The notes below the pieces were generated by a model. That model saw nothing but the letters and a program-made list of their open reading frames with translations, was not told where the DNA came from and did not search any database. From Actinomycetales bacterium (GTDB lineage Bacteria; Actinomycetota; Actinomycetes; Actinomycetales; Microbacteriaceae), in contig JBBSQX010000011.1 in NCBI GenBank assembly GCA_038243605.1, positions 2,531 through 66,530 of the forward strand: a stretch of DNA of 64,000 nucleotides, read 5' to 3'. The position numbers and the translations under genes were made by a program. Every line of letters begins with the position of its first letter. The stretch's first letter is position 1. Shown here one piece after another: positions 31,214 through 50,488 of this stretch.

Positions 31214-32530
31214 TCACCGATGATATACCGAGTCGTCTAGTCCCACGATCTTTACGAGAGCGCCTTCCCCCAAATCGAGAACATCGCCCCGCTCAAGAAT
31301 GGTTTCCCGCCCATGGTCAAGAAGCCATGATGGTCGACCGGGGGTCATGATGACGGTGCCATTCGTTGAATTCAGGTCGCGGGCCTTCAAGCGCCCACCG
31401 ATCTCCGCGATCTCGAGATGGATGGCGCTGATCTCCCTCATCGGCGACTCCAATGCGATACTCACGATGGACGAGGTGTCGAGCTCAGTGCTCCACGGTC
31501 GGCGACCCAGCACGAGAGGAATATTGGCGGCAAAGGGGTTGCCATCCAAAAGCTGCACACCCAGACGGCCACCAGCGACCTCCGCGGAGAGGTCAATGCG
31601 CGTGGCACCTCGCTCGGCGCGTGATTCTGGCGGGATCTCCTCTGGCGTCACTCGGGCTGGCGTGGCGCGAACAACGCGGGGCACTACCTCTCGCGGCGCC
31701 TGCTCGTGAGGGCGCTTCTCGCTGGGTTCTTCTTTGGTGGGTGCTTCCCCCGCAGACTCGGTCTCAGCGGGCACGGCCTCACTTGGCGCTACCTCGACAG
31801 GCGCCTTCGCGACCGGAGTCTTTTCGACGGGCATCTTTTCGACGGGCGCCTTCGCGTCAGGCATCTTTTCGACGGGCGCCTTCGCGTCAGGCGCCTTCCC
31901 TGCGGGAACGGTCTCGACCGGAGGCTTCGCGCTCGGCGTCTTTTTTCGCGACTTTTTCCCGCGGGGTGCGGCCGAGGACTTCTGAGAAACGACGCGTGGA
32001 TCGCGGGGAAGTTCCATCTGCACAGTTTTTGGTGACGGTTCGTCGATAAAAGCAAGGGCAGGAGCTGGTTCCGTCGACGGGTTCAACGCCACCACTGCCG
32101 CACGAACAACACCGCGGCGAAGCGGTAGCCTCTCGTCATCCAGGGCGTCTGGTGCACCGGTGAGTGACAGAGACAGCGCGGTGACTCCCCTCACCTCGCC
32201 CATCACCCAGGTGGCGCCTGTCGGCCCAGACAGTCGCGTACCGGTCGCGCCGTCGACATCTGCCACAACGTCGCCCTGCACGGCAACCGTCATGCGTCGT
32301 TTGGCGGCATCAAGCACCTCAACGATCGCAAAGTCTGTGAGGGAGTAGTGGGCGATCATTGCCGACAGCGCGCTATTCAGATGCACAGCCTCAGAATCGA
32401 GCGCGGCATAAAGCTCACTGGCTTGGACGGCCGTCGCGGAATGCCCAAGCAAGCAAAGAAAGCGATCCGTGACAATGGCGAAGCCGCCCTGGTCATCGGC
32501 GGACTGAGACAGGTATGCGAACACTTGCAA
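31214..32530 (-). CDS. FHA-domain protein with a Lys/Pro/Ala/Glu-rich repeat linker
   Basis: C-terminal FHA: LVLGRRP...ISAIHLEI...DLNSTNGTVI. The linker holds KAPVEKMPDA repeats. The N-terminal ~150 aa is unassigned. Start is uncertain (TTG 32530 or GTG 32524). Confidence 0.8.
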   Translation of the reverse strand: MQVFAYLSQSADDQGGFAIVTDRFLCLLGHSATAVQASELYAALDSEAVHLNSALSAMIAHYSLTDFAIVEVLDAAKRRMTVAVQGDVVADVDGATGTRLSGPTGATWVMGEVRGVTALSLSLTGAPDALDDERLPLRRGVVRAAVVALNPSTEPAPALAFIDEPSPKTVQMELPRDPRVVSQKSSAAPRGKKSRKKTPSAKPPVETVPAGKAPDAKAPVEKMPDAKAPVEKMPVEKTPVAKAPVEVAPSEAVPAETESAGEAPTKEEPSEKRPHEQAPREVVPRVVRATPARVTPEEIPPESRAERGATRIDLSAEVAGGRLGVQLLDGNPFAANIPLVLGRRPWSTELDTSSIVSIALESPMREISAIHLEIAEIGGRLKARDLNSTNGTVIMTPGRPSWLLDHGRETILERGDVLDLGEGALVKIVGLDDSVYHR

Positions 32531-32538
32531 AGAGTACC

Positions 32539-32567
32539 GGATGCGGAGCCCACTTCGGGCTCCATCC
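32539..32567 (-). terminator. Strong hairpin between the eccC stop and the downstream FHA gene (attenuator/terminator candidate)
   Basis: GGAT-gc-GGAGCCC (32539-32551), loop ACTTC, GGGCTCC-ATCC (32557-32567). On the transcript it is followed by GGUACUCUUUG. Confidence 0.45.
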
Positions 32568-32589
32568 GAAAACTCGATCGTGCGGCCTG

Positions 32590-35500
32590 TTAGCCCTCGC
32601 GGGGAGGAGAAAGCGCGAGCTGTGCGGAGAGCACACCACGGTCGCGGCTGACAATCTGCGCACGTCCGGCGACGGAAGGTCGAGGCTTCACCTTGCCGAT
32701 GAGCTGACCCTCTTCTGGGTTTCCGCTCAGCAAGATGCCCGTGGTTCCCAAATCTGTGAGTCCCTGGATGATGGGGTCGTATGCCGACCTGCTTGCGCCG
32801 CCTGCGCGTCTAGTGAGAATCACGTGCATACCGAGGTCGCCTGCCTGCGCGAGCAACGGCGCGAGAGGCGCGAGGGGGTTACCCTGCGAGGTGGCGACCA
32901 AATCGTAGTCGTCAACGAGGATGAACCCCTCAGCACCTGTCCACCATGAGCGGGCACGCAACTGCTCTGAGTTCACATCCGGGCCCGGAATGCGCCCACG
33001 CAGGAACGCCGCAAGCTCAGCGATTCCGGTCGTGGCAAGTTCGTGCGCTGTGAGGTATGCACCCAGGTACTCCGGTGGAATCTCACCAAGCAGTGCGCGT
33101 CGGTAGTCGACCACAAAGATTTTCGCCTCAGCCGGTGTGTAAAGGCGCATGATCTCGTTGGCGTACGCCCGCAGCATCGACGACTTGCCGGAGTCGGCGT
33201 CACCGTAGAGGTAAAGATGTGGTTCTGCGCGGGGGTCGATCGCGAACGGCGCCAGTTCTGCCTCATCGATCCCGATCAAAATGTTGCGGGTGTCGGCAGG
33301 CGCCAAGGCGCGCAGCTCATCGAGGGTGATGAGCTCAGGCAGCAATCGCAGCTTCGGCCCTGCAGGCCCGGTCCAGCCCGCACTCACCTTGGCAATGAGG
33401 TCGTCGATGCCATTGGCGAGGGTGGAGCTCTCGCCCGAACCGTCGATGCGCGGAAGCGCGGTGAGCATCTGCAACTTGCTCTGCGCGAGACCACGGCCTG
33501 GCATCGACATGGCCACGTTGGCTGCGGCCTTACGGTCGATCTCAGAGTCGGCAGCGTCACCGAGCCGCAGCTCGATCTTGGAGCCGATGAGGTCTTTGAT
33601 GTTCGCGCGCAGTTCGAGCCAGCGGGATGCCGTGATGATGACGTGAACACCGAACGTGAGCCCGCGCGCGGCGAGCGCCTGCACATCGACCTCGAGATTC
33701 TCGAACTCGCTGCGCAGTGTTGCCCAGCCGTCGATGATCAGGAAGATATCGCCGTAACCGTCGTTCACCGTACCCTCAGCGCGGCGCTGGCGATAGGTCT
33801 CGATCGAGTCGATGCCCTGTTGGCGAAAATACACTTCGCGCTTGTTGACGATGCCGATGATCTCGGCGACCGTACGCCGAACCACATCCGGTTCGGACCT
33901 GGTGGCGAGGCCGCTCAAGTGCGGAAAGTCCTGCAAACCCGAGAAGCTACCGCCACCGAAGTCAAGAACGTAGAACTGCACCTCCAAGGGCGTGCAGGTG
34001 AGCGAGAGCGCGACCATGGTGCTGCGAGCGAGCGTGCTCTTGCCGCTCAACGGCCCACCGACGATGGCCATGTGGCCTGCCGCGCCGCCGAGAGAAACAG
34101 TGAGTGACTCACGCCGCTGCTCGAGCGGGATGTCGACGATGCCGAGTGGCACGGTGAGCGCACCCGTGTTGCGCCAGCTTTGCGAGATGAGCCCGAGTTG
34201 AGGGTGCACCGCAAGGTCGGGCATGAGCTGGTCGAGGGAGGCGGGGGTGAGCAGAGGTGGCAGCCAGACCTGGTGGGCGGCAGGACCTCGCCCGCTCATC
34301 CGCTCGACCGCGATCTCGAATGTGCTGCGCTTCTCTTCTGGCTCAGCAGAGGAGACAACAGGGGCATCTGCGTGAACCTCTGGCTCCTCGGAGCGTCGCA
34401 CCGGCGCCGCAGTGAACAGTTCGACACTGGATGCGCCGTCGCGGATGACCCCACCGGCAACCGAGCGCGCACGGTTCTTTGGTGCGCCCGAAACGTAGGC
34501 GGCCCTGAACTGAGTCATGGTTTCGGTGTCGGATTTCAGGAAGCCCATTCCGGGCTCCGGCGGCAGGTGGTAGGCATCAGGCACCCCAAGCACGGCGCGG
34601 GATTCGGCGGCCGAGAAGGTGCGCAGCCCGATGCGGTACGACAGGTGGGAGTCGAGCCCGCGCAGCTTTCCCTCTTCTAGACGCTGCGATGACAGCAGGA
34701 GGTGCACCTGCAGGGAGCGACCAAGTCGACCAACGTTGACGAAGGTTTCGACGAAGTCTGGCTTCGCAGAGAGCAGCTCCGAGAACTCGTCAGCGACAAT
34801 GAGCAGCGCAGGCAGCGGCGCGAGGTCGGTGCGGCCACCGCGACGGGCTTTCTCGTAATCGGTGACGTTGGCGAAGTTGCCACTGATGCGAAGCAGTTCC
34901 TGACGGCGCACCATTTCGCCCTGCAAGGCATCCTGCATGCGATCGACGAGCGCGATCTCCTTACCGAGGTTCGTGATGATCGCGGAGACGTGGGGCATGT
35001 CGGCCATGCCAGCGAAGGTGGCGCCACCCTTGAAGTCGACGAGAACGAAGTTGAGCTGTTCAGGCGAATGGGTGAGGGCGAGAGCGAGCACGAGGGTACG
35101 CAAAACCTCAGACGTGCCGGAACCGGTTGCCCCAATAATGAGGCCGTGCGGGCCCATTCCTTGCTGGGCCGACTCTTTGATGTCGAGCACAATCGGCACA
35201 CCCTCTGAGTCCTGACCGATCGGTACGCGCAAGCGGTCGCGCTCGAGGCGCCCGCCCCAGGCCGTGTCAAAATCGATGTCACGCACATCTGGGAGGTTGA
35301 GCAGGTCAACCAGTTCCGCCTGCCCAGAGATCGCGCCGCTAGAACTCGTGGTGGTCGACGTCGACGAATACAGCGGCATGAGCCTGCGCGCGGTGGCCTC
35401 CGCTTCGACGACACTGATTCCGTCGGCGGTGAAATCTACGGCAGCCGCCTGCAACGTGATGAGTTCTGCGGCACCACGCTTCGCCGTCGGGGACTGGGAG

Positions 35501-36558
35501 AGTGCGATGCGCAGCATGGTCGGGTTCTCAAGCTCTGCCCATCGCGCCGGAAGCTCGATCACCGTAACGCCGAGCACACCGTCTTCGGTGACAATGGGGT
35601 CACTCAATGGCACTCGTGCGCCATCAACAACAATGATCACGTGCGGCAGCGTCGCGGAGGTGGCCGGCCCAAACCGCGGTCGCTCCTTGATTTCTGCCGG
35701 CAGCAGATCCTCGATCTCGTCGAGCGAGGAGGAGATCATTCTGGCCGGACCGAGCTGGTCGGTGCTCGTGCGCGAGTGGGTGTGTGGCAGCCACTTTGCC
35801 CACTCCCACTGCGACAGCGAGGCGTCATCCGCGGCGATGGCGATCTGCAGGTTCTCTGGGTCGTGCATTGTTGCAGCGTGCAACAGCATGGCGCGAACGA
35901 GCGAACGAACCTCGCGTTCATCCCCCGTCACCTGAACGCGAGCGAAGCCGTTGAGTGGCACCGCAAGGGGGAGGTTCTCTTGCATCTCGTGCGCGATCAT
36001 GAATCGGTGCGCTGCGGATGCCGCCACAGGGTCGAGCTGCGCAAGAGGGGGGAGCTCTGGAGCTTCGAGCGTCACACACAGCGGCTGATCGCTGGTGCCA
36101 ACCCTGCCGAGCAAAAAGTCTGGGTCCCCGGCGGAGCGTTCCCACACCCTGGTGCGTTCCTCTGCGAGGTAGGTGAGCGCTACCGGCGCAGGGTTCGCCC
36201 AGTTGGCGGCCCTGCGCTGCTGCTTGGCGGCAACACGAATGGTCTGACGCAGCTCGGTGAGGTAGGCGAGGTATTCGCGTCTCGCGGCGACCACGGCGGT
36301 TTGGCGCTGCGAGCGTTGCCGCCATCCGTTGACCACGACAAAGCCGAGGGACGACAGCAGAAACATTCCACCAGTGAGTAGCCCGGTGAGGCCCGCATTC
36401 GACATGGTGACCATGACGATGGCGCCGATACTGCCGAGCATAGGGAGCATCGAGCTGAGAAGGTTGCTTCCCCCTTCGCTCGGGGCGAGTTCTGGCGGGG
36501 CCTGCACCGAAATCTTGCCGGAGGGCACGCGTGGGGGCGCGAGGCGGGTTGCTGACAT
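32590..36558 (-). CDS. eccC: Type VII secretion FtsK/SpoIIIE-family ATPase EccC (three P-loop domains)
   Basis: Two N-terminal TMs plus three ATPase domains. The P-loops are GATGSGTSE (D1, atypical), GGPLSGKST (D2) and GDADSGKSS (D3). The D1 Walker B is LLIVADEFSELL. The ATG overlaps the upstream stop (TAATG). Confidence 0.95.
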   Translation of the reverse strand: MSATRLAPPRVPSGKISVQAPPELAPSEGGSNLLSSMLPMLGSIGAIVMVTMSNAGLTGLLTGGMFLLSSLGFVVVNGWRQRSQRQTAVVAARREYLAYLTELRQTIRVAAKQQRRAANWANPAPVALTYLAEERTRVWERSAGDPDFLLGRVGTSDQPLCVTLEAPELPPLAQLDPVAASAAHRFMIAHEMQENLPLAVPLNGFARVQVTGDEREVRSLVRAMLLHAATMHDPENLQIAIAADDASLSQWEWAKWLPHTHSRTSTDQLGPARMISSSLDEIEDLLPAEIKERPRFGPATSATLPHVIIVVDGARVPLSDPIVTEDGVLGVTVIELPARWAELENPTMLRIALSQSPTAKRGAAELITLQAAAVDFTADGISVVEAEATARRLMPLYSSTSTTTSSSGAISGQAELVDLLNLPDVRDIDFDTAWGGRLERDRLRVPIGQDSEGVPIVLDIKESAQQGMGPHGLIIGATGSGTSEVLRTLVLALALTHSPEQLNFVLVDFKGGATFAGMADMPHVSAIITNLGKEIALVDRMQDALQGEMVRRQELLRISGNFANVTDYEKARRGGRTDLAPLPALLIVADEFSELLSAKPDFVETFVNVGRLGRSLQVHLLLSSQRLEEGKLRGLDSHLSYRIGLRTFSAAESRAVLGVPDAYHLPPEPGMGFLKSDTETMTQFRAAYVSGAPKNRARSVAGGVIRDGASSVELFTAAPVRRSEEPEVHADAPVVSSAEPEEKRSTFEIAVERMSGRGPAAHQVWLPPLLTPASLDQLMPDLAVHPQLGLISQSWRNTGALTVPLGIVDIPLEQRRESLTVSLGGAAGHMAIVGGPLSGKSTLARSTMVALSLTCTPLEVQFYVLDFGGGSFSGLQDFPHLSGLATRSEPDVVRRTVAEIIGIVNKREVYFRQQGIDSIETYRQRRAEGTVNDGYGDIFLIIDGWATLRSEFENLEVDVQALAARGLTFGVHVIITASRWLELRANIKDLIGSKIELRLGDAADSEIDRKAAANVAMSMPGRGLAQSKLQMLTALPRIDGSGESSTLANGIDDLIAKVSAGWTGPAGPKLRLLPELITLDELRALAPADTRNILIGIDEAELAPFAIDPRAEPHLYLYGDADSGKSSMLRAYANEIMRLYTPAEAKIFVVDYRRALLGEIPPEYLGAYLTAHELATTGIAELAAFLRGRIPGPDVNSEQLRARSWWTGAEGFILVDDYDLVATSQGNPLAPLAPLLAQAGDLGMHVILTRRAGGASRSAYDPIIQGLTDLGTTGILLSGNPEEGQLIGKVKPRPSVAGRAQIVSRDRGVLSAQLALSPPREG

Positions 36559-37994
36559 TATGCTTTCTCACTCCCGAGAAGGATGCTGACCGTGAACGTT
36601 CGGTCGCCAATGCGCACGCGTACGCCATCGTCAAGCAGAACCCGCTCACCCGGCACTAGCACGACGCTGTCACCGTCTTCGGAGAGCAACTCTGTTCCGT
36701 TGGTGGAGTCGCCATCCGTGAGCCAGGTACGACCGCGGGAATGCTCTAGGCGCAGATGGGTTTTCGAGACGGTCGAGTCTGGGTCCGTCACGACAACAAG
36801 TTTGTCACTTGGTTCGGTTGCCACGGGGTTACGACCGAGGTTCACCGAGACGGGGGCCGCAAACTGCTCACGTTGGCCGGTGTCAAATATCAGCAGCAGG
36901 GTGCCACTCGCGCTGGGAGCCTCGGCCCCACTCGCCGGGATGATGCCCGCGACGAGGCCACTCGACGGCTCCTCGATAATGGGCACCGGAGAGGCGATAA
37001 ACGTCTGGCCACCGGCCGCCGTGTTCGATGTGCTGAGCGAATCTTCGTCGACGACCGAGAATCGGGCGGTCGTACTGATGACGTGCGGCACCAGTGAAGG
37101 AACGGGCGGTGTGAGGTAGTGCATGGCGGCTCCCGGCGGGAGTGCCTCTGGCTGTGACCCCATCGTCACGGCCATCCCCTGCTGCTGCATGTTGCCAATA
37201 TCGCGAGGGAATGCTGCCTTACGTGGAGTGCGAGGTGGAACCGCCACAACAACGGTGAGAGCTGCACGATCTGCCCAGGTTCTGCCCTTGCCCGCGTCAT
37301 CCCAGGCGGAGGAGGCGACGACTATCCACGCGCCCACGGCGGCGACCATGAAGCCGGCGCCCGTAATGAGCCACCGCACGAAGGAGCGCCCAACGCCAGG
37401 AGAGTATGGGGCGTCATGGCGGGCGGTGCGCAATCGGAACAGCGCATTTCCGGGCGTCAGCCCCGTGCGGGCCTCAAGTACCCACATAATGACGAGGGCT
37501 TCTGCGAGCGCGATCAGGCCGTAGACGATACTCGAGGTCGCTAACGTGACAACCAACGCCACGAGCGCCACCGCGATGACGTCGGCCGTGAAAGCTCCGA
37601 GCCTCGCACCGGTACTTGCGACTGTTCCGGCGAATACTGGGTCGAGCGTGGCGGTGCCCCGTGGCGGCCTCTGCACATTCGGTCGAACTGACATCTGGTG
37701 CGGGGTGGCCGGCTGGGGGAACCCTTGTGGCGGGATGCCCATCGGTGCAGAACCCCCGGCATCCGCGCCGACGGCACCGGCACCAGCCAACGCAGGCGCA
37801 ACGAGAAACTGCGCGGGTGAGACCTGCTGGATGGCCCCACACCAAATACAGCTGACGCTGCCGGCCTGAACAACCTGATGACAGTTCCAGCACTGCGCGC
37901 CGGAAGTTGACGGTGCCCCTGAGGACGGTGCCCCTGAGGACGGTGCACCTGAAGACGGCGCACCTGGGGTTGGCGGCAGCGGTGGCAGACTCAT
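36558..37994 (-). CDS. Zinc-ribbon / RDD-family membrane / FHA-domain protein
   Basis: (GAPSS)x3, then CWNC...CIWC. RDD-type TM region ending ...GRTWADRAALTVVV. C-terminal FHA: NLGRNP...TVSKTHLRL...GDSTNGTEL. Overlaps the eccD stop (37991-37994) and the eccC start (36558). Confidence 0.8.
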   Translation of the reverse strand: MSLPPLPPTPGAPSSGAPSSGAPSSGAPSTSGAQCWNCHQVVQAGSVSCIWCGAIQQVSPAQFLVAPALAGAGAVGADAGGSAPMGIPPQGFPQPATPHQMSVRPNVQRPPRGTATLDPVFAGTVASTGARLGAFTADVIAVALVALVVTLATSSIVYGLIALAEALVIMWVLEARTGLTPGNALFRLRTARHDAPYSPGVGRSFVRWLITGAGFMVAAVGAWIVVASSAWDDAGKGRTWADRAALTVVVAVPPRTPRKAAFPRDIGNMQQQGMAVTMGSQPEALPPGAAMHYLTPPVPSLVPHVISTTARFSVVDEDSLSTSNTAAGGQTFIASPVPIIEEPSSGLVAGIIPASGAEAPSASGTLLLIFDTGQREQFAAPVSVNLGRNPVATEPSDKLVVVTDPDSTVSKTHLRLEHSRGRTWLTDGDSTNGTELLSEDGDSVVLVPGERVLLDDGVRVRIGDRTFTVSILLGSEKA

Positions 37995-39376
37995 GCCGCC
38001 ATCATTCCACGCAGAAGGTCTATCGCGTCGGCGGCGAGCAGTGCCGCGGGCAGACAGAAGGCAACGGCGAGGCCCTCCATGACATCCGCGAGCCGTGACC
38101 AGCCAAGGGAGCTGGAGCCGCGACCGATAGGAACAAGCACTGCGGCGGCGATGATGCCGATCACGAGAAAGACGATCGAGGCGATGACGAGCGACTGCGA
38201 GCCAAATTCTGCAGTGGCCACCACGGCGGCTTCCAACATGACGATGACGGCGGCGCTTCGGGGAACCCAGCGAAGTATCGGGTTGAGGGTGTGCCGTGGA
38301 ACAAGCAGCAGCGCGAGTACGAGTAGCACCACGAGGGCTATTGTTCCTATCTCGATGAGCAGGTTTGCCCGCCAGTTTCCGGCGAGGGCGATGGGCATCA
38401 TCGTGACGGCGATAATGCTCAGAAGTACTGTACCGGCGAGCAGTCGCGCACTGGAGTCGTGCACGATCCGCAGCACCTCCGTGAACCTCACCTGATCTGG
38501 TGAGACCGGGATCGTTCCACGCACTGTCCAGCGGTTGCTCATGAACCGCGCGTAGTCAATGTGGTAGCCCTCAGGAACATTCACGAGGGTGCTAGGAATG
38601 GCGCGAAGCGCGATCGGCACCGCGCCCGCCGAGATGGCACCTGCCGCAACGAGGCCCCACCCCATCGCGAGCGTGATTCCCCACACCCCAGCGAACACGA
38701 GGAGCAGGATGGCGACCGCGGAGGAGGCGCCGCGCAGACGCACACCGCCGACCGAGGTTGTGAGCACAGTGGCGAGGATGCCGGCGGCGAGCAGCCCAGA
38801 AAATATTCCGAGCTGCAGTGAGGCTTCGAGACCGGAGGGCACCGCAAGCATCCCGGAGGCGAAGGCGAGGCCGAGAGGCGCAAGCATCGCGAGAGCATCG
38901 GCCGGGTTGTCGTTCGATTGACGGAACGCCCAGGCGAGCGCGGAGACGATTGCGGCAACCCCGAGCACGGCGCTCACGACGGCGCGCTCAACTGTGCCGA
39001 GCACAACGCCATCAGAGTTGTTGCTGTACACGGCAGTGCCGACGGCGACGATGGCGATCATGGCGAGCATCCACCAAACGTTCCCGCGGTCATAACGCGT
39101 CGTGGTGCGCTGTTCTCGTACTGTGGGGGCGAGCGGTTCGTTTGCTCGCAGGTCAACGATGGCGAACAGGGCCCCGTCTGACAGCTCTGCTGCGAGTATG
39201 CCGAGCTTAGTCTCGCGCCCGCCGCGTTCGAGCACCACGTGGCGACCAGGCTCGATGATATAGCCCAGCCCACTCAATACGTTGCCGAGGGTGTCATCGA
39301 GCGGAACGAGCAGGTCGAGGCGACGCTCCCCGTCAACCAGAGCGATCTTTCGGCGCTCCGGAACGATCACCGACAT
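37991..39376 (-). CDS. eccD: Type VII secretion integral membrane protein EccD (copy 1)
   Basis: N-terminal ubiquitin-like segment (RRLDLLVPLDDTLGNVLSGLG...) followed by about 11 TM helices. Confidence 0.85.
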   Translation of the reverse strand: MSVIVPERRKIALVDGERRLDLLVPLDDTLGNVLSGLGYIIEPGRHVVLERGGRETKLGILAAELSDGALFAIVDLRANEPLAPTVREQRTTTRYDRGNVWWMLAMIAIVAVGTAVYSNNSDGVVLGTVERAVVSAVLGVAAIVSALAWAFRQSNDNPADALAMLAPLGLAFASGMLAVPSGLEASLQLGIFSGLLAAGILATVLTTSVGGVRLRGASSAVAILLLVFAGVWGITLAMGWGLVAAGAISAGAVPIALRAIPSTLVNVPEGYHIDYARFMSNRWTVRGTIPVSPDQVRFTEVLRIVHDSSARLLAGTVLLSIIAVTMMPIALAGNWRANLLIEIGTIALVVLLVLALLLVPRHTLNPILRWVPRSAAVIVMLEAAVVATAEFGSQSLVIASIVFLVIGIIAAAVLVPIGRGSSSLGWSRLADVMEGLAVAFCLPAALLAADAIDLLRGMMAA

Positions 39377-42602: not shown

Positions 42603-42651
42603 GAGTGGCCCTTTCCCTACGTGACGTTAAAAACTTTGTGTCAGGCTGCAG

Positions 42652-42681
42652 GCCGGGCGGCGGAGTAACCGCACACCCGGC
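42652..42681 (-). terminator. GC-rich hairpin about 20 nt after the WXG100 pair (attenuator candidate)
   Basis: GCCGGG (42652-57) / CCCGGC (42676-81) outer stem and GCGG (42660-63) / CCGC (42669-72) inner stem. The transcript has GUUUUUAA about 20 nt further downstream. Confidence 0.4.
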
Positions 42682-42701
42682 CCGACAAAGCCTGGGTCGA
42701 A

Positions 42702-43026: not shown

Positions 43027-43344
43027 TTAGAAACCAGACATCATCGAGCCGAGGCCCGAGATGGTGGACTGGTGCTCTTCTTCGGTCGCCGCCGCGTCAC
43101 GCTCAGTGCCCGACAGCGCATCCTCAAGAGTGACCAACACGTTGTTGAGCTTGCGTGCCTGCTCATCCCACGAGTTCATCAGCGTGGTGAACGACACCGC
43201 CGCTGAACCCTGCCAGTAACCGCGCAGCTGCTCGATCTCTCCACGCACGTTCTTCACCTGCTGGTCGATTCCAGCCTTCGTTTCATTAACCGCCTGAGCT
43301 CCCCTACGTAGGGCTCCCTCTTCCGCGGAAATAACTCCTGCCAT
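43027..43344 (-). CDS. WXG100-family (Esx) protein
   Basis: 105 aa from the ATG at 43344 (MAGVISAEEG...). YWQGSA provides WxG. The C-terminus ...GSMMSGF resembles the CFP-10-type ...QMGF end. The 24-aa extension in the ORF track is rejected. Confidence 0.88.
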   Translation of the reverse strand: MAGVISAEEGALRRGAQAVNETKAGIDQQVKNVRGEIEQLRGYWQGSAAVSFTTLMNSWDEQARKLNNVLVTLEDALSGTERDAAATEEEHQSTISGLGSMMSGF

Positions 43345-43554
43345 GGTCCACTCCTTCAATACATCGTGTGCCATCAATGACGGGCCCACAACGGGCCCAC
43401 CACAAGACAAGGGCAATCACCACTGGTCTGCCCCAAAACATCCTTCAAAGCCCCAGAGTAAGACAGAAGCGTCTACCACCGCAACATAACGAGCGATATT
43501 CCCTTACGAGAATCGTGCCTGACCCCGCGTGCGGGCCATCCAGAGACCGGGGTG

Positions 43555-44904
43555 TCACGGTCGCTTGATGCGCCGGGAGGCGAGCACCACCACCAGAATG
43601 ATCACGCCGATGATCAGCAGCAGGAAGATGACCCCGCCTATCACGACCGGAACTAGCCACGACATCGACCGGTCGGCCTCTGGAGGTTTAGTTGCTGAGG
43701 GCGTCGGTGTACTCGCGTTCGTCCCGTTAGCAATCATCTCGGCAGAGGGACCCCACAGTGAGTTTTCTTGCACCAGAGGATTCACATCCGGATACTGCGT
43801 AGGATCCACTTTCAGCATGTGAGTTGCCGAGGCGATTCCGAACCCGATCCCGCTCGTAGCACTGTAGCCGAGTGGGTGATCTACGACTCCGGTGTTGTTG
43901 ATCAGGGTTTGAATCAACTGATTACCCGTCGCTTTGGGATACTTCTGCTTCACCAACGCCAAGAAACTTGACACAACCGGAGTCGCATACGAGGTGCCAT
44001 TGGCAAGACGCTGCGTCTCCCACGAACCATCCGCAGCAAAACCCTGAACCAGAATCCCACCACCAGGGCCCGCCACCACAACGTTAGGATCCTGCTCGGT
44101 CTGACCACCGGCAACATCCATCTTCACGTTGCCGTCAGAATCAACCCGCTGCACCGCTACCGCACCATTAGCCGTTGCTGGCCACGTTGCGGTAATAAAG
44201 TCTCCAGTGAGAAGCTCATTAGCAAGCGAACCAACAATGACAACGCCGTTGTGCTGCGCGTTTGCCACCGCATCAACAAGTTCAGGCACCGGAGAAACAC
44301 CCAACGACACCGAAATAATCTGTGCCCCCAACGCCACCGCGCTATCGACATAGTCGGCAACGATATCGCCAGAGTACTTTGCACCGCCCTCACCACGGCA
44401 CTCGAATATATTGCCGTCAGCGCTCGGCGGGCCCGTCATGAAATAGAGCACCTTCGCGCCAGGGGCTACGCCCTTCACCCCCGTCTGACCCGCATATCCA
44501 GCGCCCGTGCCCACAATCAACGACGTCACATTCGTACCGTGATCTGCATCCAAGGATGTCGAGGTCGGAGGAATCAACACACCCGACTCATCAAAACACT
44601 TCGAAGGCTGCACCTCAATATTGGTGCCCTTCAGTGTGGGTAAATCAAGATTGATCTGCGAATCCAACACCGCAATCGTCACACCCTTGCCCGTGATCCC
44701 CGCATCATGCGCATCCTGGATATGGAACACGTCGAAATACCAAAGACCTTCTTGCGGGGTCTCCGCCATCGCGGCAGAACCAGAACCCAGCAGCAGCCCC
44801 ACAACGGCAATAGCTGACACCACACGGGCGCTCCAACGCCGCACCGGCTTCGTTGCACCGCGATCAATGTTTACTCGGTATCGATTAGTCGTAGTCATCA
44901 GCAT
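43555..44904 (-). CDS. Membrane-anchored S8 serine protease, mycosin-like (paralog B)
   Basis: Closely parallels paralog A: LKGTNIEVQPSKCFDESGVLIPPTS..., ADHGTNVTS, NGTSYATPVVSS, ASATHMLKVDPTQYPDVNPL, then a C-terminal TM. Start taken at the ATG 44904; 44898 is also possible. Confidence 0.88.
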   Translation of the reverse strand: MLMTTTNRYRVNIDRGATKPVRRWSARVVSAIAVVGLLLGSGSAAMAETPQEGLWYFDVFHIQDAHDAGITGKGVTIAVLDSQINLDLPTLKGTNIEVQPSKCFDESGVLIPPTSTSLDADHGTNVTSLIVGTGAGYAGQTGVKGVAPGAKVLYFMTGPPSADGNIFECRGEGGAKYSGDIVADYVDSAVALGAQIISVSLGVSPVPELVDAVANAQHNGVVIVGSLANELLTGDFITATWPATANGAVAVQRVDSDGNVKMDVAGGQTEQDPNVVVAGPGGGILVQGFAADGSWETQRLANGTSYATPVVSSFLALVKQKYPKATGNQLIQTLINNTGVVDHPLGYSATSGIGFGIASATHMLKVDPTQYPDVNPLVQENSLWGPSAEMIANGTNASTPTPSATKPPEADRSMSWLVPVVIGGVIFLLLIIGVIILVVVLASRRIKRP

Positions 44905-45192
44905 CCGGTTCACCCTCACATTTGGAGCACCACTGCAGCGCCTACCGTCAAACACCTCACAACGACCGCACGAGTGGCGATCACCGAAAACAAGTAGACC
45001 TGAACAACGTCTGAAGGGTGAGATGCCACATCCTGCGCGACACGCCTGTCTGTGAACAGAGTATTCTATCCCTACCGTTGTTCGCGATCACTGTGCACCT
45101 CTTCTATGTATTGCGTGTGTAGAGAACTGACTAAACTCTGAAAAGTATCAAAACGGCCCGGGATGCGGGCACAACCTCAGTGGGGAAACGTG
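44905..45192. promoter_or_regulatory. Divergent promoter region between the two T7SS operons
   Basis: The only sizeable non-coding gap between divergent genes in the island, and visibly AT-richer. Contains a small palindrome TCTGT-GA-ACAGA (45049-45060). No -10/-35 assignment attempted. Confidence 0.4.
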
Positions 45193-46545
45193 ATGAGCCA
45201 GGCTGTCGCCACGACAGGAACACTCCTGCGAGTGTCAATCGTCAGTGAAGACCGGCGCCTCGACATCGGGGTGCCAGCACAACTTCCGCTCATCGAGCTC
45301 ATCCCCGGCTTCGCACGCAGCCTCGGAGTGCTCGACCCCACACTCGCACACGGCGGCTACGCCCTGCACAAAGCAGACGGCACCGCGCTCGACCCCAGTC
45401 GAAGCGGCGGCGCACAAGGAGTGCACGACGGCGACCTTCTCACTCTCGTGCGTGGCGGGCTCATTGCGGAACCGCGCATCTACGACGACATCGTCGAAGC
45501 CGTCATCGACGCCACCTCAGAACAACACGGAACGTGGACTCCACGAGACAGCGCCAGAACCGCCCTCGCCATCAGCCTCAGCTTTCTCGGCCTCTGTGCC
45601 GTCATGCTGCTCAGCGCTGGCCCCGCACTCAGCGTTGGCGCCATCAACCTCGGTGCGATCATCGCGGCAGGCGGCGCCATCGTTCTCGTCACCGCCGCCG
45701 CCGTGCTCACCCGCATGGGGCAGCCAGAAGCGGGCCACGCGTTAGGCCTCGCCGCGGCAGTGTTCGGCGGCATGACCGGATACCTGCTGGTACCGGGCGC
45801 CACGCTGTGGGGATGGCCACTCGCCGCCGCAGGGCTCGGGATGCTCATCGTCGGCGGCGCTGGCCTCGCACTAACCCAGCAGAAACCAGAAGTGCACCTC
45901 ATTCCGGTCACCTTCGGAGCCGTCCTAGGAATCACCGCGCTCCTCACCGCGGTGCTCGCGCCAGAAAGCCCTGCCGTCTACGCGATCATGATCGCCGTCA
46001 CCGCCACGCTCTCCAACGGATTACCGTGGCTAGCGCTCAGCTCCACCCGCATCCGGGTGATCTCCGCCCAAAATGACCTCGAAATTTTTGCCACCCCCGA
46101 ACCCATCAACGCCACTGACGTCAAAAATCGGACTGCCGCGGGGCAGCGAGTACTCGTCTCACTCAGAGTGGCACTCGGCCTCTCCGTGCTCACCGCAACA
46201 CCCCTCGTCGCTGCCACCGGTGGAGCAGGCGCAGCGCTGTGTGCGCTGGCCTTTGTGGGCATGATGTTCCAGTCGCGGCAGAGCTACGCACGACTCGGGG
46301 TACTCGTGCTCATGGCCGCCGGTGCCATCGGGCTCGCCGTCACCGGGCTCACCGTCAGTGCCGCACAACCAGACCTGCGGCCGGCGCTACTCACCATTCT
46401 TCTCAGCGTGACCGGCGCACTCGTCGTACTCACACTCCTCAGCCCCAAAGCTCGGCTGCGCCTGACAAAACTCGGAGACACCGTAGAGATCTTTGCCCTG
46501 GTTCTTCTCCTGCCGCTCGGCGCCGCCACGGTGGGGCTGCAGTAA
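45193..46545 (+). CDS. eccD: Type VII secretion integral membrane protein EccD (copy 2)
   Basis: LLRVSIVSEDRRLDIGVPAQLPLIELIPGFARSLG ubiquitin-like N-terminus plus about 11 TMs. The ATG at 45193 is preceded by GGGGAAA. Confidence 0.85.
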   Translation: MSQAVATTGTLLRVSIVSEDRRLDIGVPAQLPLIELIPGFARSLGVLDPTLAHGGYALHKADGTALDPSRSGGAQGVHDGDLLTLVRGGLIAEPRIYDDIVEAVIDATSEQHGTWTPRDSARTALAISLSFLGLCAVMLLSAGPALSVGAINLGAIIAAGGAIVLVTAAAVLTRMGQPEAGHALGLAAAVFGGMTGYLLVPGATLWGWPLAAAGLGMLIVGGAGLALTQQKPEVHLIPVTFGAVLGITALLTAVLAPESPAVYAIMIAVTATLSNGLPWLALSSTRIRVISAQNDLEIFATPEPINATDVKNRTAAGQRVLVSLRVALGLSVLTATPLVAATGGAGAALCALAFVGMMFQSRQSYARLGVLVLMAAGAIGLAVTGLTVSAAQPDLRPALLTILLSVTGALVVLTLLSPKARLRLTKLGDTVEIFALVLLLPLGAATVGLQ

Positions 46546-46548: not shown

Positions 46549-47910
46549 ATGGCTACCAAAAAAGACCTCATAGAAGCGCAAGGATACAGTCGCAGACGGC
46601 TGCTCTCCGCGTTCACCGGCGGCGCACCAGGCGGCAAAGAGCTCGACCCCGCCAAGCCGTTACGCGCCGTCGTGGCCGGCATCGCCCTCACCGTGATGGT
46701 CATTCTGGGCGGAGTCTTCTACGGGATGATTCGCCCAGGACTCCCCACCGGATGGGAGAACAACCACCTCGTCGTGGCCAGCGACACAGGCGCGAGGTAC
46801 CTCTCCGTTGACGGCGTGCTCTACCCGGTCATCAATACGGCAAGCGCACGACTGCTAATCCCCTCCGGCAAATTCGCGGTGATCACCACCGACCAGAAAA
46901 CACTCGCCGACATTCCCATCGGCGGCGCCATTGGCATCCCCGGAGCACCAGACAACCTGCCATCCCCCGACTCGCTCGTGCGAGACGGATGGGCCGCGTG
47001 CGTCACAGACGACGCCCACACCGCTGTTGCCCTCCCCGACACCCAGCTACTTGAACCAACTGACAACGCCACCCTGGTGAAAGTAGAGAAACAGCTCTCC
47101 GTAATCATGGGAGAAAATCGCTACGCAGTTGACCACAGCGAAGCAGACTCCGTTCTGCGCGCGGTCGGGCTCGACGCCTCCAGCGCTGTCGACGTCGACA
47201 GCCGCTGGCTCAGCCTCTTCGAGCCGGGCGTTCCCCTCGCCCCGATCACGGTAGCGGATGCCGGCGACTCAATCCCCGGAAGCAGCCTCAAGGTCGGCAG
47301 TGCCGTGCACACCCAAGGAAGCCCAGAAGACCAACGTTTTCTTGTGACTAAAAACTCAGAGCTCGCGCCGCTCAGCCCCCTCGCCTACCAGCTCTACCTC
47401 CTCGGGAGCGGCGCAGATCTCGGCGCCGCTCGCGAGGTCAGCCCCGCCGAGATCGCCTCCCTCTCAACAGCCAAGAGCCCAGCGGGCGGAGAGGACTGGC
47501 CGACCACGCAGCTCACTCCCGTCGCTGACGACACCCCCCGCTGCGCCCTGCTCACCCACGAAAAAGAAGGCGAACCGCTCACCACGCTCGGCACGCTGAA
47601 AGCCGGAGCCACTCTGCCAGAACAGACCACCGACGTGAGCGTCAGCAGCAACGGCGGAGCCCTCATCCGAGTGGGCAGCAGTGGTGACGGCGGCGGGATG
47701 ATCTACCTCATCGATGGCGCAGGAACGGCCTACCCGATCCCCGCGGCAAACAAAGAAATCATCGGCAGACTCGGGTATGCCCCCTCCGACATCACCAGAG
47801 TTCCCGCCGCCTGGATCGACTTCATGCCCGCCGGGGCCAGCCTCACCGAGGAAGCAGCAGGCCAAAGCGCCAACGCGGGCACCAGCACGACAACCTCAGG
47901 GAAGTCGTGA
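46549..47910 (+). CDS. eccB: Type VII secretion protein EccB
   Basis: MATKKDLIEAQGYSRRRLLSAFTGG..., one TM, then a large extracytoplasmic domain (LYPVINTASARLL...). Confidence 0.92.
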   Translation: MATKKDLIEAQGYSRRRLLSAFTGGAPGGKELDPAKPLRAVVAGIALTVMVILGGVFYGMIRPGLPTGWENNHLVVASDTGARYLSVDGVLYPVINTASARLLIPSGKFAVITTDQKTLADIPIGGAIGIPGAPDNLPSPDSLVRDGWAACVTDDAHTAVALPDTQLLEPTDNATLVKVEKQLSVIMGENRYAVDHSEADSVLRAVGLDASSAVDVDSRWLSLFEPGVPLAPITVADAGDSIPGSSLKVGSAVHTQGSPEDQRFLVTKNSELAPLSPLAYQLYLLGSGADLGAAREVSPAEIASLSTAKSPAGGEDWPTTQLTPVADDTPRCALLTHEKEGEPLTTLGTLKAGATLPEQTTDVSVSSNGGALIRVGSSGDGGGMIYLIDGAGTAYPIPAANKEIIGRLGYAPSDITRVPAAWIDFMPAGASLTEEAAGQSANAGTSTTTSGKS

Positions 47911-49406
47911 TCGGGATGCGGCGCCTCGGCACCCTGATCGCACTGCTCGCCCTCAGCGCAGTGCCCATCCTTATTCCTAGCGCAAGCACCGTAGCGTTCG
48001 CCGCCGCCGGAGACACCCAATGTGCGCCAGGAACTATCGCCTACTCGCCGGACACCCCCGCCGCCCTCGGGCTGTTGCAGAACACCGCCGCCTGGACTCA
48101 CAGCACCGGGGCCGGTGTCATCGTGGCCATCGTGGACTCCGGCATCGACGCCCACAACGCGCACCTGAAAGACGCCGTTATCGGCGGCATCAACCTTGTC
48201 GGTGACGGCACAGACAGCTCCGGACTCAGCGACCTCGACGGGCACGGCACCGCCATCGCCGGACTCGTCGCCGCGCGCAGCGTTCCCGGCTCCGGAGTGA
48301 TCGGCCTGGCACCAGACGCAAAGCTGCTCTCGGTGCGCGTGTTCCGTGGCACGAATGAAGAAAACATTAAGGCCGGATTCGGGCCAACAATCGAGCGGCT
48401 CGCCCAAGGCATCCGCTACGCCACCGACCACGGAGCCACGATAATCAACGTGTCGCTCAGCGACTACACCGACTCTGGCCCGCTGCTCGCTGCTGTCAAC
48501 TACGCGACAGCGAACGGCAGCCTCATCGTTGCCAGTGCAGGCAACCGAGCAACCACCACAAACAAGACGGACGGGCCGCGGTACCCCGCCGCATACCCCG
48601 GAGTTCTTGGCGTCGCGGCCACCGGCCTCGACGGCATCGTGACAAACGACTCAATCCATGGCCCGCACGTCGCCATCTCCGCGCCCGGATCTGAAATTCT
48701 CACCTCCGCAACCGGAAGCGGCGACTGCCTCTACGCCTCCGACGCCCCCACTTCAAGCTTTGCGACCGGATACGTCAGTGCCGCAGCAGCGCTGGTCGCG
48801 TCGGCGCACCCGGATGAGACGCCAGCACACTGGGCCTACCGACTGCAGGCGACCGCCCTGCGAACCGACCGAGACCATCGCAACGACGAAGCCGGCTGGG
48901 GCGCGGTGCAACCCGCCGACGCCATCACTCTCGCACCGGGGGCAAGTACCCGTGGCCCGGAGGGCCCCTTCAGCGACACCAGCACCAGCGCTGTGCGGCC
49001 AGCCCACATCACCGTGGCGCCCGACTACAGCGTCTCGCCGTTTGATGTGGCCCAAAGCAGCATGGTGCTGCTCGTCGCGATTGCGGCAACACTGCTCGGC
49101 ACGCTTGGGCTCGTGATCGCGTTACGCGCACGTCGACGCAGTAGCGGTGTTGGCACTGGCGATGTTGGTACTGCTGGCGTGGGGAATGACGGTGCCGGCA
49201 TTGACGGTGTTGGCACTGGCGATGTCGGCACTGGCGATGTCGGCCGCAGCATTGCTGGCGGTCGCGGCAATGGTCGAAGCGGCATGGCTGGGGGTAGAAG
49301 CACTGGCGGTAGCGGGAACAGGAGCGGCACGGCCGGTGGTAGCGGGAACGGGAGCGGCACGGCCGGCGGTAGCAGCATCGGCAGCATCGGCAGCATCGCG
49401 ACGTAA
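47907..49406 (+). CDS. mycP: Mycosin (T7SS-associated S8 protease) with an 87-aa Gly-rich tail after the TM anchor
   Basis: Signal peptide, AIVDSGID, DLDGHGTAIAGLVAA, VASAGN and TSSFATGYVSAAAALV. TM is MVLLVAIAATLLGTLGLVIAL, followed by RARRRS and the repeat tail. GTGA overlap with the eccB stop. Confidence 0.9.
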   Translation: MIGMRRLGTLIALLALSAVPILIPSASTVAFAAAGDTQCAPGTIAYSPDTPAALGLLQNTAAWTHSTGAGVIVAIVDSGIDAHNAHLKDAVIGGINLVGDGTDSSGLSDLDGHGTAIAGLVAARSVPGSGVIGLAPDAKLLSVRVFRGTNEENIKAGFGPTIERLAQGIRYATDHGATIINVSLSDYTDSGPLLAAVNYATANGSLIVASAGNRATTTNKTDGPRYPAAYPGVLGVAATGLDGIVTNDSIHGPHVAISAPGSEILTSATGSGDCLYASDAPTSSFATGYVSAAAALVASAHPDETPAHWAYRLQATALRTDRDHRNDEAGWGAVQPADAITLAPGASTRGPEGPFSDTSTSAVRPAHITVAPDYSVSPFDVAQSSMVLLVAIAATLLGTLGLVIALRARRRSSGVGTGDVGTAGVGNDGAGIDGVGTGDVGTGDVGRSIAGGRGNGRSGMAGGRSTGGSGNRSGTAGGSGNGSGTAGGSSIGSIGSIAT

Positions 49407-49456
49407 AACCGCAGCCATTCCCCGTGCGAGAAGTCTGGTGTTTGCGGCGATGGCGA

Positions 49457-50488
49457 CTACTCGGAGCTCACGCTCATACCGACATCGCCAAGCACGAAGC
49501 GACCCTGCACCACAGCAGAGGCGGCCGGCTCAAGATAGTTTTCCGCACCGTCGGCCGCAACGACCATGACGCCGTTCGTGGATTTCAGGTCAGTGATAGT
49601 CCACTGGCCATTCCCAAACGTGAGACGTGCATGCGCCTTCGACAGCGTGCGGGTGGAATCCTCAATCGCAAGCAGCTGCGACGCTGCGTCATCTGATGAT
49701 GGATTGCGGCCCAACTCAACTCGAGTGGCGGTGAGCGCGAAGGCGCGGCCATCGTCGAGCCTGAGGCTCCACAGAACCGGCGACACGGGCTCCACGGGAG
49801 GCACCACCCGAACGTCAACCGCCTGAGGCTCAGCAGCCACGACAGGCACGGCGGGTGACACAGATACTGCGTTTGGTGGCAGTGGCACTGCTGGTTCGTC
49901 GGGTGGGGCAGGCGCGACAGATAAGGCAGGTTGGGCCGGTGCGACAGGGGCCTCTGCGGCGGATATTTGCGCGGGCGCCGATGGTGGTTTCTGAGGAATT
50001 GCGTAGCCAGAGGCATCCGTCACTCTCACTCCCAGAGTGGGTTCCGGTTTCACGCGAGGGCTAGCGACGCGATCCCCCCGCACCGGAGGGCTCGAGGCGA
50101 CACCAGCAGCAACTTGGACATCAGTCGTCACGCGGCCCCAGCCCAAAATAGACGCCCAGATTGGCGGGAACAAAAGCCCAACAACCGTCAGACCCGCACC
50201 GCGCCCGAGCTTACGGTTGATGCGCAGCAATGCGACCGCCTTCAAATACACGCCATACAACTGCAAGACCGGAATGAAGTAGTAAACGACCGACCAACCA
50301 GGGATACCGCCGCGTGTCAGAATCTCGGCCTCGTTCAGAACTGGCACCCAGCCCTTCCACGCCTCGCCACCGATCTTCGGGAACAGCCGAGACAAGGCGA
50401 TCGCGTACCAAACGAAACCAGCCACACCCGCGATGACAGTCAGCACCACGCCAACGACCACTGCTCCCTGCAGTTCGGGCGGCGTCAT
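49457..50488 (-). CDS. Membrane FHA-domain protein, paralog of 17405-19021
   Basis: From the ATG at 50488 (checked): ...AWKGWVPVLNEAEILTRGGIPGW... TM module, a Pro/Ala linker, and FHA (ELGRNP...TLSKAHARL...DLKSTNGVMV). The 64-aa extension in the ORF track is rejected. Confidence 0.85.
   Translation of the reverse strand: MTPPELQGAVVVGVVLTVIAGVAGFVWYAIALSRLFPKIGGEAWKGWVPVLNEAEILTRGGIPGWSVVYYFIPVLQLYGVYLKAVALLRINRKLGRGAGLTVVGLLFPPIWASILGWGRVTTDVQVAAGVASSPPVRGDRVASPRVKPEPTLGVRVTDASGYAIPQKPPSAPAQISAAEAPVAPAQPALSVAPAPPDEPAVPLPPNAVSVSPAVPVVAAEPQAVDVRVVPPVEPVSPVLWSLRLDDGRAFALTATRVELGRNPSSDDAASQLLAIEDSTRTLSKAHARLTFGNGQWTITDLKSTNGVMVVAADGAENYLEPAASAVVQGRFVLGDVGMSVSSE

Follow-up and report, generated by a model that had tools for sequence, protein, structure and literature searches.

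The subject of this analysis is a 64,000-nucleotide stretch of contig JBBSQX010000011.1 (GenBank assembly GCA_038243605.1), referred to as the window, which encodes a type VII secretion system (T7SS) together with a large surface protein, a protein kinase, a protein phosphatase, and several FHA proteins. The source organism is a Microbacteriaceae bacterium close to Lacisediminihabitans, and the nearest named relative is a Lacisediminihabitans metagenome-assembled genome (MAG). A greedy open reading frame (ORF) map of the window was prepared, and the ORF proteins were scanned against Pfam and NCBIfam. In this map the locus spans positions 15868-50680, which is larger than first described, and it contains four FHA genes. 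An unbroken run of genes on the minus strand extends from 44955 down to 15868, and eccD-eccB-mycP are divergently oriented on the plus strand. No frameshifts are present, and all of the genes of the locus are intact apart from one site in eccC. Related loci were collected by a scan of one genome per species. This provided 80 loci in which the ORFs were annotated with the proteins of the window, and the counts given below are for the 58 loci with full 10-kb flanks around rdd-fha, the gene for a protein with RDD and FHA domains. The genes for the secretion core are listed below.

32590-36558, minus strand: EccC, the motor ATPase of T7SSa (TIGR03924, 873.9 bits with a cut-off of 509; TIGR03925, 810.2 bits with a cut-off of 347)
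42702-42992, minus strand: WXG100 protein (Esx) with a WGG motif (PF06013, E = 3.5e-19)
43027-43344, minus strand: WXG100 protein (Esx) (PF06013, E = 4.6e-13; TIGR03930, 60.7 bits, above the cut-off)
45193-46545 (longest ORF from 45163), plus strand: EccD1, the canonical EccD (TIGR03920, 118.5 bits with a cut-off of 95; YukD and EccD domains in Pfam)
46549-47910, plus strand: EccB (TIGR03919, 177 bits with a cut-off of 154; PF05108, E = 4.3e-59)
47907-49406, plus strand: MycP, the most canonical mycosin of three S8 proteins (TIGR03921, 250.9 bits with a cut-off of 278.75; Peptidase_S8, E = 4.8e-37)

The NCBIfam equivalog cut-offs are passed by EccC, EccB, and EccD1, and these three genes lie where the first-pass annotation, made from the sequence alone, had placed them. 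The three S8 proteases that it described, each with an N-terminal signal peptide and a C-terminal anchor, were also recovered with a Peptidase_S8 domain and hydrophobic segments at both ends. The mycosin model TIGR03921 is the top NCBIfam match for all three, with scores of 137 bits (S8a), 125 bits (S8b), and 251 bits (MycP) that are all under the cut-off. The eccD-eccB-mycP gene order, the signal peptide, and the C-terminal transmembrane (TM) segment of MycP fit a mycosin with a score below this cut-off. The proposed WXG100 pair is present, with one of its genes moved: the ORF at 42641-42934 is an Arg/Ser-rich wrong frame that overlaps the true gene at 42702-42992 on the minus strand. The longest ORF for the second Esx protein is 43027-43416, and Met25 is the likely start; the orthologs are 104-105 residues in length.

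No protein of the locus matches EccE, EccA, EspG, or PE/PPE in Pfam or NCBIfam at E ≤ 0.01, although a very divergent EccE could escape these models. The hypothetical proteins do not match these models even up to E ≤ 10, in agreement with the absence of these components noted earlier. EccC scores 485.6 bits with the model for firmicute EssC (cut-off of 778.4), its matches start at residues 10-19, and it contains no FHA domain. The core is a minimal ESX-4-like T7SSa, as first proposed, because EccB, EccC, and EccD are matched, EccA, EccE, EspG, and PE/PPE are not, and EccC is far under the EssC cut-off and without FHA. EssA, EssB, and EsaA, the families specific to T7SSb, have no match among the proteins of the locus in the same scans. 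The further suggestion of an architecture intermediate between T7SSa and T7SSb is not upheld by these results, given that all of the core parts are of the T7SSa type. The phosphothreonine-binding residues (GR, S-x-x-H, and N-G) are kept in all four FHA domains of the locus; the FHA domains of T7SSb EssC lack these residues and act in assembly (PMC11217815), which is further evidence against an intermediate.

The second group of genes extends from the 3′-end of eccC to the end of the minus-strand run, with one additional member beyond mycP.

15868-16578, minus strand: tail-anchored TVVV-repeat protein (identified from its sequence; C-terminal TM segment at residues 208-226)
16575-17408, minus strand: PP2C Ser/Thr phosphatase, EsrF-like (NF033484 Stp1/IreP, E = 1.1e-53, 182 bits, below the cut-off of 230)
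17405-19021, minus strand: FHA0, a membrane protein with DUF5684 and, at its C-terminus, an FHA domain (PF18936, E = 9.4e-11; PF00498, E = 2e-6)
19018-21519, minus strand: polytopic transglutaminase-like protein, EsrD-like (Transglut_core, E = 1.9e-8, 35 bits with a cut-off of 23; approximately nine hydrophobic segments)
21516-22880, minus strand: DUF58 protein, at the vWA position of an Esr module (PF01882, E = 3.7e-12)
22877-23842, minus strand: MoxR-type AAA+ ATPase (AAA_3, E = 1.6e-61; bpMoxR, 39.6 bits with a cut-off of 27)
23877-30014, minus strand: EsrA-like surface sensor of 2045 residues (Big_9 and Cadherin-like matches; N-terminal hydrophobic segment at residues 17-35; AlphaFold2 model; Foldseek)
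30014-31144, minus strand: Ser/Thr protein kinase, EsrE-like (Pkinase, E = 2.9e-42; HRD and DFG motifs; TM segment at residues 358-376)
31214-32530, minus strand: FHA1, an EsrG-like protein in which a disordered linker joins an N-terminal domain to an FHA domain (FHA, E = 4e-4; family alignment; AlphaFold2 layout; Foldseek match to FHA)
49457-50680 (49457-50488 in the first-pass annotation), minus strand: FHA3, a second membrane protein with DUF5684 and FHA (PF18936 and PF00498)

The labels in this list refer to the Esr pathway of Wang et al. (bioRxiv Sept 2026, PMC13622651). According to that preprint, the pathway consists of EsrA (secretion signal, immunoglobulin-like (Ig) repeats, and beta-propeller), MoxR, a vWA protein, EsrD (a transglutaminase), EsrE (a kinase), EsrF (a phosphatase), and EsrG, in which an FHA protein provides the output. 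Of 3502 Esr pathways counted there, 40% adjoin esx genes, and EsrG is sometimes fused to EccC.

The EsrA-like protein begins with a signal or anchor sequence, which is followed by an N-terminal beta-propeller and then by Ig-like repeats. An exhaustive HMMER search provided 2057 relatives, many of approximately 2000 residues, and a 30-sequence alignment was used as the input for AlphaFold2. The model for residues 33-440 is a confident one, with a predicted local distance difference test (pLDDT) score of 87.5 and a predicted template modeling (pTM) score of 0.84. In the PDB, every top Foldseek match of this model is a beta-propeller, with a YVTN S-layer protein, cd1 nitrite reductase, BamB, and WD40 proteins as the matches. 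The kinase is anchored to the membrane through its C-terminus and lacks an extracellular domain. DUF58 proteins are the usual partners of MoxR ATPases.

FHA1 belongs to a small family in which the alignment and the AlphaFold2 model give a conserved N-terminal domain of approximately 150 residues, a variable disordered linker, and the FHA domain. The linker contains one invariant Thr (T167) with I, M, or V at the +3 position, and the FHA motif reads GRRPW...S..H...STNG. This predicted layout resembles that of EsrG1, which in the text of the preprint has an N-terminal pseudophosphatase domain, a disordered linker with a phospho-acceptor Thr, and an FHA domain (PMC13622651).

All three of the FHA genes initially assigned inside or beside the locus encode FHA domains, and the count is raised by a fourth gene at 17405-19021. 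FHA3 is a paralog of FHA0 (59% and 48% identity in two blocks), and a gene at the FHA3 position also adjoins mycP in Agromyces. The TVVV protein contains eight tandem TVVV repeats, six of which are (D/E)RTVVV(D/E)R. Its orthologs adjoin the PP2C gene in Microbacterium loci (L012, L020, L023, L026, and L027) and carry 2-6 repeats of EATVVV(D/N/S)R. The TVVV protein looks like a candidate multivalent docking scaffold that would present phosphothreonine (pT-x-x-V) to FHA domains. The sequence DRTVVVDR also appears once in FHA0, just upstream of the FHA domain. Assignment of FHA0, PP2C, and the TVVV gene at 15868 to the actinobacterial fhaA-pstP-rodA-pknB cell-division cluster was ruled out; the neighbors are type IV pilus genes.

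With a probability of roughly 0.65, the locus is an ESX-4-like T7SSa (EccB, EccC, EccD1, MycP, and the EsxA/B pair) joined to an Esr-type sensing and phospho-signaling module. The preprint text reports that in Schaalia odontolytica an Esx-adjacent Esr2 pathway is needed post-translationally for the export of the glycine-rich substrates AesA/AesB and not of EsxA/EsxB. In the proposal of its authors, EsrG2 acts on EccC through its FHA domain and modulates it, and how the Esr2 signal affects Esx secretion is described there as an open question (PMC13622651). Since the domain types of Esr adjoin the locus, with DUF58 at the place of vWA, and Esr2 is linked to Esx in Schaalia, the FHA proteins of the module could gate the Esx system here, as the first-pass annotation proposed. 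This idea corresponds to the published model, which has been tested in part.

Several observations weigh against this interpretation. Homology to the Esr and Aes proteins of Schaalia is judged from domain architecture. When the full FHA1 model was used with Foldseek, only the FHA domain was matched, and the N-terminal domain had no match. The protein at 21516-22880 carries DUF58, which we take to be vWA-like. An Esr-type gene (MoxR, DUF58, transglutaminase, DUF5684-FHA, PP2C, TVVV-repeat protein, or Ser/Thr kinase) lies within 10 kb of rdd-fha in only 14 of the 58 loci, a count that the flank limit makes too low. Finally, EccC in this assembly carries the substitution K482T in the P-loop of ATPase 1, and its motor function may be lost as a result.

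The Walker A motif of EccC ATPase 1 is GATGSGTS in this assembly and GATGSGKS in 68 of 68 orthologs. The K482T codon is found at window positions 35113-35115. A contig of 5116 nucleotides from the SRR24807091 read-run assembly, which is from the same strain, equals window positions 32111-37226 except at position 35114, where the Lys codon AAG of the contig is ACG (Thr) in the window. The substitution is either an inactivating variant or a consensus/assembly error in this assembly. If K482T inactivates the EccC motor, the secretion system would be switched off in the sequenced clone and the locus recently disabled. This is possible but on the unlikely side. The uniform GATGSGKS of the 68 orthologs and a same-strain SRR24807091 contig that differs at one base only and encodes Lys argue for it, and the P-loop lysine of ATPase 1 is said, in work attributed to Rosenberg et al. 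in 2015, to be needed for ESX secretion. Against it, the change may be an error of the consensus or assembly or a minority allele, and the remaining genes are intact. Residues 398-408 of EccC form a Ser/Thr-rich stretch that is a possible site for phosphorylation or for FHA docking.

The two genes immediately upstream of eccC encode the following proteins.

36558-37994, minus strand: protein with a Zn-ribbon, an RDD membrane domain, a linker, and an FHA domain, referred to as RDD-FHA (RDD, E = 3.2e-9; FHA, E = 2.4e-6; CxxC...CxxC; gene junctions; synteny)
37991-39376, minus strand: EccD2, an EccD paralog of highly divergent sequence, with a ubiquitin-like region at the N-terminus and approximately 11 TM segments (hhalign; PF19053, E = 0.034 at full length; TM profile)

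EccD2 (461 residues) gives no BLASTP match to EccD1. Profiles were built from 71 EccD2 orthologs and 52 canonical EccD sequences of the related loci and were compared using hhalign. A probability of 96.8% and an E-value of 2.7e-10 were obtained over 405 columns with 18% identity, and the aligned part extends from the ubiquitin-like RRxDLxVP region at the N-terminus as far as the last helix. A search of PDB sequences with the EccD2 profile provided no meaningful match and did not reach the mycobacterial EccD chains. The two EccD paralogs of the first-pass annotation therefore stand on different footings: EccD1 is confirmed by TIGR03920, and the gene at 37991-39376 is recognized only by profile-profile comparison, with PF19053 (E = 0.034) sub-threshold in Pfam. 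Decay of one copy to a pseudogene was rejected, as both genes are intact and full-length orthologs of EccD2 are found in 58 of 58 loci. By these comparisons, EccD2 is an old and intact EccD paralog. Each protomer of ESX-3 contains two conformationally distinct copies of EccD that contact EccC and EccE differently (PMC6986878), and for this reason an EccD1/EccD2 heterodimer that takes up both of these non-equivalent positions, here with EccE absent, is a reasonable inference, in line with the hetero-oligomers suggested in the first-pass annotation.

The FHA gene between eccD2 and eccC is start/stop-coupled on both sides, as had been noted: ATGA holds both the stop of eccD2 and the start of rdd-fha, and TAATG likewise holds the stop of rdd-fha and the start of eccC. 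The phosphothreonine-binding residues GR, SKTH, and STNG are invariant in 19 aligned RDD-FHA sequences. Homologs of RDD-FHA number in the hundreds, and the named ones are from Microbacteriaceae. The zinc-ribbon CxxC...CxxCG is found at the N-terminus, at about residues 36-55, and is missing from approximately half of the relatives. A conserved acidic, Ser/Thr-rich patch, (V/I)DEDS.S.S.TG, is found in the linker from RDD to FHA.

The 80 loci are from Microbacterium, Leifsonia, Agromyces, Leucobacter, Salinibacterium, Cryobacterium, Orlajensenia, Demequina, and one Bifidobacteriaceae MAG. Their eccD2, rdd-fha, eccC order is widely conserved: EccD2 is upstream of rdd-fha in 58/58 loci, EccC was detected in 55/58, and the eccC start overlaps the rdd-fha stop by 4 nucleotides in most loci. 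WXG100 genes are present in 53-56 of the 58 loci. In Agromyces protaetiae and Microbacterium oxydans, RDD-FHA is encoded between a protein with a weak EccD match and EccC, opposite to eccD-eccB-mycP. The M. oxydans locus contains no kinase or sensor downstream of eccC. FHA1 and the Ser/Thr kinase directly follow eccC in Agromyces as they do in the window, and a Ser/Thr kinase is downstream of eccC in two Leifsonia loci. In several other genera, Esr-type genes adjoin the T7SS on either side and in rearranged order. The arrangement is not a product of chance; it recurs in Microbacteriaceae, Demequinaceae, and one Bifidobacteriaceae MAG. EccC was not detected in four of the five Leucobacter loci (L041, L042, L045, L046, and L050), and the contigs of L041 and L045 end less than 1 kb after rdd-fha. 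Genes for WXG100, S8, or glycine-rich proteins and not eccC follow rdd-fha in L046, L050, and L042. Among the Leucobacter loci only L042 has a match to eccC, which lies elsewhere in the locus, and the usual order is rearranged.

Genes for rpoC and rpoB directly adjoin the locus at window positions 50753-57793 on the minus strand, and consequently the T7SS is located in a core chromosomal region with no obvious island. The GC content is even over the region. Directly beyond the Esr-like module is a type IV pilus cluster (2759-15721, minus strand) that contains a PilB-like T2SSE ATPase with MshEN, a second T2SSE ATPase, three prepilin-type N-methyl proteins, PilM, and PilO. A different target of regulation is conceivable for the FHA, kinase, and PP2C genes, for example the cell envelope, the neighboring type IV pilus, or clients of MoxR, and their position next to the T7SS would then be incidental. 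FHA, Ser/Thr kinase, and PP2C genes are common in Actinomycetota, the pilus cluster is the direct neighbor of the module, and FHA3 is outside the operons and next to rpoC. The incidental explanation is nevertheless very unlikely, given that rdd-fha overlaps both eccD2 and eccC in an order kept over three families, that FHA1 and the kinase directly follow eccC in Agromyces and in the window and a kinase is downstream of eccC in two Leifsonia loci, and that the text of the preprint reports an experimental functional link between Esr and Esx (PMC13622651).

A separate question is whether RDD-FHA and EccD2 are part of the signaling. Only 14/58 loci have an Esr-type gene within 10 kb, and RDD-FHA may for this reason work independently of Esr. 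In one alternative, RDD-FHA and EccD2 would be constitutive structural subunits of a distinct T7SSa subtype, with the FHA domain as an assembly scaffold and Esr as a facultative neighbor. The presence of both genes in all 58 loci, their translational coupling to eccC, the M. oxydans locus, and the precedent of EssC, whose FHA domains assemble without phosphothreonine binding (PMC11217815), are consistent with this explanation. The invariant GR, SKTH, and STNG residues favor phospho-dependent binding instead, and Esr genes on the far side of mycP are undercounted with a flank of 10 kb. A purely structural role is rather unlikely on this evidence, but it is compatible with an Esr-coupled T7SSa, and both could hold.

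The remaining genes of the locus encode candidate substrates and two additional proteases.

39503-40813 (longest ORF to 40834, 443 residues; likely start at Met8), minus strand: AesB-like candidate substrate (sequence, orthologs, and motif)
40831-42144, minus strand: S8a, a membrane-anchored mycosin-like subtilase (Peptidase_S8, E = 2.3e-28; TIGR03921, 137 bits, below the cut-off)
42141-42602, minus strand: protein of 153 residues with no family (no Pfam or NCBIfam match)
43555-44955, minus strand: S8b, a lineage-specific duplicate of S8a (64% identity over 432 residues; Peptidase_S8, E = 7.3e-31)

The AesB-like protein consists of an N-terminal domain of approximately 165 residues, a glycine-rich disordered middle region, and a charged C-terminus. 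The N-terminal domain has a weak match to WXG100 (E = 0.19), and the remainder of the protein is approximately 35% glycine. The C-terminal motif K-R-S-G-L-G-G-(P/Y)-(I/M)-A-P-K-L-E-D-D-E-E-x-G-P-R is conserved. Orthologs of the N-terminal domain were found in about 50 loci using phmmer against the related loci, and the glycine-rich protein is present in 44/58. A large-database search with the N-terminal 179 residues returned no relatives, probably as a result of the word prefilter. AesB is described in the preprint text as having an N-terminal domain that is helical, approximately 160 disordered residues rich in glycine, and a charged C-terminus with a conserved motif (PMC13622651). That motif is printed there as both GYNVP and GYVNP, and the corresponding sequence here is GLGG(P/Y)(I/M)AP. 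The protein of this locus has the same architecture as AesB, with a C-terminal motif that is related to that of AesB and distinct from it.

The 153-residue protein is weakly similar to a few ORFs of the related loci (best E = 4.9e-4), and a small unannotated gene occupies its position in loci L001 and L002. It is possibly an AesA-like partner of the glycine-rich protein. The genes for the 153-residue protein, S8a, and the AesB-like protein are packed at 39503-42602 on the minus strand, with overlaps or gaps of no more than 17 nucleotides. S8a and S8b are each approximately 29-30% identical to MycP. Exactly one protease of the S8a/b type is present in 43/58 loci, and two or more are present in only 4/58. 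Judged by its identity to S8a, S8b is a recent copy. The S8a gene is located between two genes for putative late substrates, an arrangement that recalls MycP1 and EspB. MycP1 processes EspB, and S8a may likewise act on the late substrates.

Taken together with the Esr-coupled T7SSa described above, these features would allow a more specific proposal. In Microbacteriaceae, Demequinaceae, and some Bifidobacteriaceae, there may be a distinct T7SSa subtype, so far undescribed, in which an EccD1/EccD2 heterodimer operates without EccE. RDD-FHA, made in step with EccC, would be a phosphothreonine-dependent clutch for the motor and a counterpart in trans of the FHA domains of EssC, perhaps reading the TVVV protein or the EsrG-like protein, and S8a would process the glycine-rich late substrate. 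This combined proposal is possible but rather unlikely.

The mechanism below, for which the observed gene identities, domain architectures, phosphothreonine-binding residues, gene order, and conservation are the starting material, is drawn from the Schaalia model, and we infer all of its signaling and gating steps. The surface protein (beta-propeller and Ig repeats), which the transglutaminase probably attaches to the envelope, would sense an external cue. MoxR and DUF58 would relay this cue to the tail-anchored Ser/Thr kinase, and PP2C would reset the signal. The resulting phosphothreonines would be read by the EsrG-like FHA1, which is encoded directly after eccC, and by the eccC-coupled Zn-ribbon-RDD-FHA membrane protein. 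These FHA proteins would switch EccC post-translationally to the export of late substrates, for which the glycine-rich AesB-like protein is the candidate, and the export of EsxA/B would be basal.

If this is correct, the Esr-Esx defense circuit would be extended from oral Actinomycetaceae to environmental Microbacteriaceae. EccD2, RDD-FHA, the extra protease, and the TVVV protein would be conserved parts that could explain how the phospho-signal reaches the EccC motor, and, if both EccD paralogs are obligate, nature would have provided an experiment on why two non-equivalent EccD copies occur in the ESX protomer. The gain is incremental because the central idea of an FHA- or phospho-gated T7SS has already been published. 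That model is plausible here and is not new.

One of the known systems that resemble this locus is the H1-T6SS of Pseudomonas aeruginosa, in which the kinase PpkA, the PP2C phosphatase PppA, and the adaptor Fha1 control firing post-translationally. The likeness is no more than an analogy, as the secretion machines are unrelated and homology is limited to the generic domains (FHA, kinase, and PP2C). The same parallel with the type VI secretion system was drawn for phospho-regulation of T7SS by Garrett, Higginson and Palmer (2024), who found that T7SSc-j often occur with kinases, PPM phosphatases, and FHA proteins and who proposed phospho-regulation (PMC11217815). No Microbacteriaceae system and no variant with EccB and EccD is covered in that work. 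T7SSb and T7SSd-j resemble this locus in the association of FHA, kinases, and PPM phosphatases with T7SS clusters, and a stand-alone FHA component occurs in some of these variants. The ATPase itself carries the FHA domains in T7SSb, d, e, f, and j, unlike the EccC found here. T7SSd of Olsenella and Bifidobacterium has the FHA-bearing TsdC and a five-component set without EccB, EccD, and MycP, whereas EccB, EccD, and MycP are all present here and EccC is without FHA (PMC11217815).

The MoxR-vWA-beta-propeller ternary conflict systems (Kaur, Burroughs, Iyer and Aravind 2020, as cited in PMC13622651) share with this locus the bpMoxR match, a DUF58 partner, a beta-propeller sensor, and kinase and FHA proteins. 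Their output is a toxin or nuclease effector, and the output here is a secretion system. According to Wang et al., clusters of the Esr type were missed in that survey (PMC13622651). Mycobacterial ESX-4 and the ESX-4-like T7SSa of non-mycobacteria have EccB, EccC, EccD, MycP, and EsxA/B and no EccA or PE/PPE, as is the case here, and EccE is absent from some ESX-4 variants as well (PMC11217815). The locus differs from ESX-4 in its two divergent EccD proteins, the extra S8 proteases, the FHA membrane protein in the operon, and the sensor, kinase, and phosphatase module.

Neither RDD and FHA together with EccC nor EccD paralogs outside of mycobacteria were found described in an incomplete literature search, for which the preprint was available as text without figures or supplements. 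The eccD2/RDD-FHA/eccC order, the extra mycosin-like protease, the TVVV protein, and the two DUF5684-FHA proteins are likewise mentioned in the text of neither PMC11217815 nor PMC13622651, and the order eccD2, Zn-ribbon-RDD-FHA, eccC is possibly new. The closest known system is the Esx and Esr2 cluster of Schaalia odontolytica F0309, as described in the text of the preprint. At the level of domains, both have a T7SSa-type Esx cluster with a beta-propeller/Ig protein, MoxR and its partner (vWA there, DUF58 here), a transglutaminase, a kinase, a phosphatase, and an FHA protein for the output (putative here); both encode a disordered, glycine-rich substrate (a candidate here) whose charged C-terminus is conserved; and the taxonomic range reported for Esr covers the GTDB Actinomycetales. 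The text on the Schaalia cluster does not mention several features of this locus: its four FHA proteins, EccD2, the Zn-ribbon-RDD-FHA protein whose gene is coupled to eccC, the additional mycosin-like proteases (one or two), and the TVVV protein.

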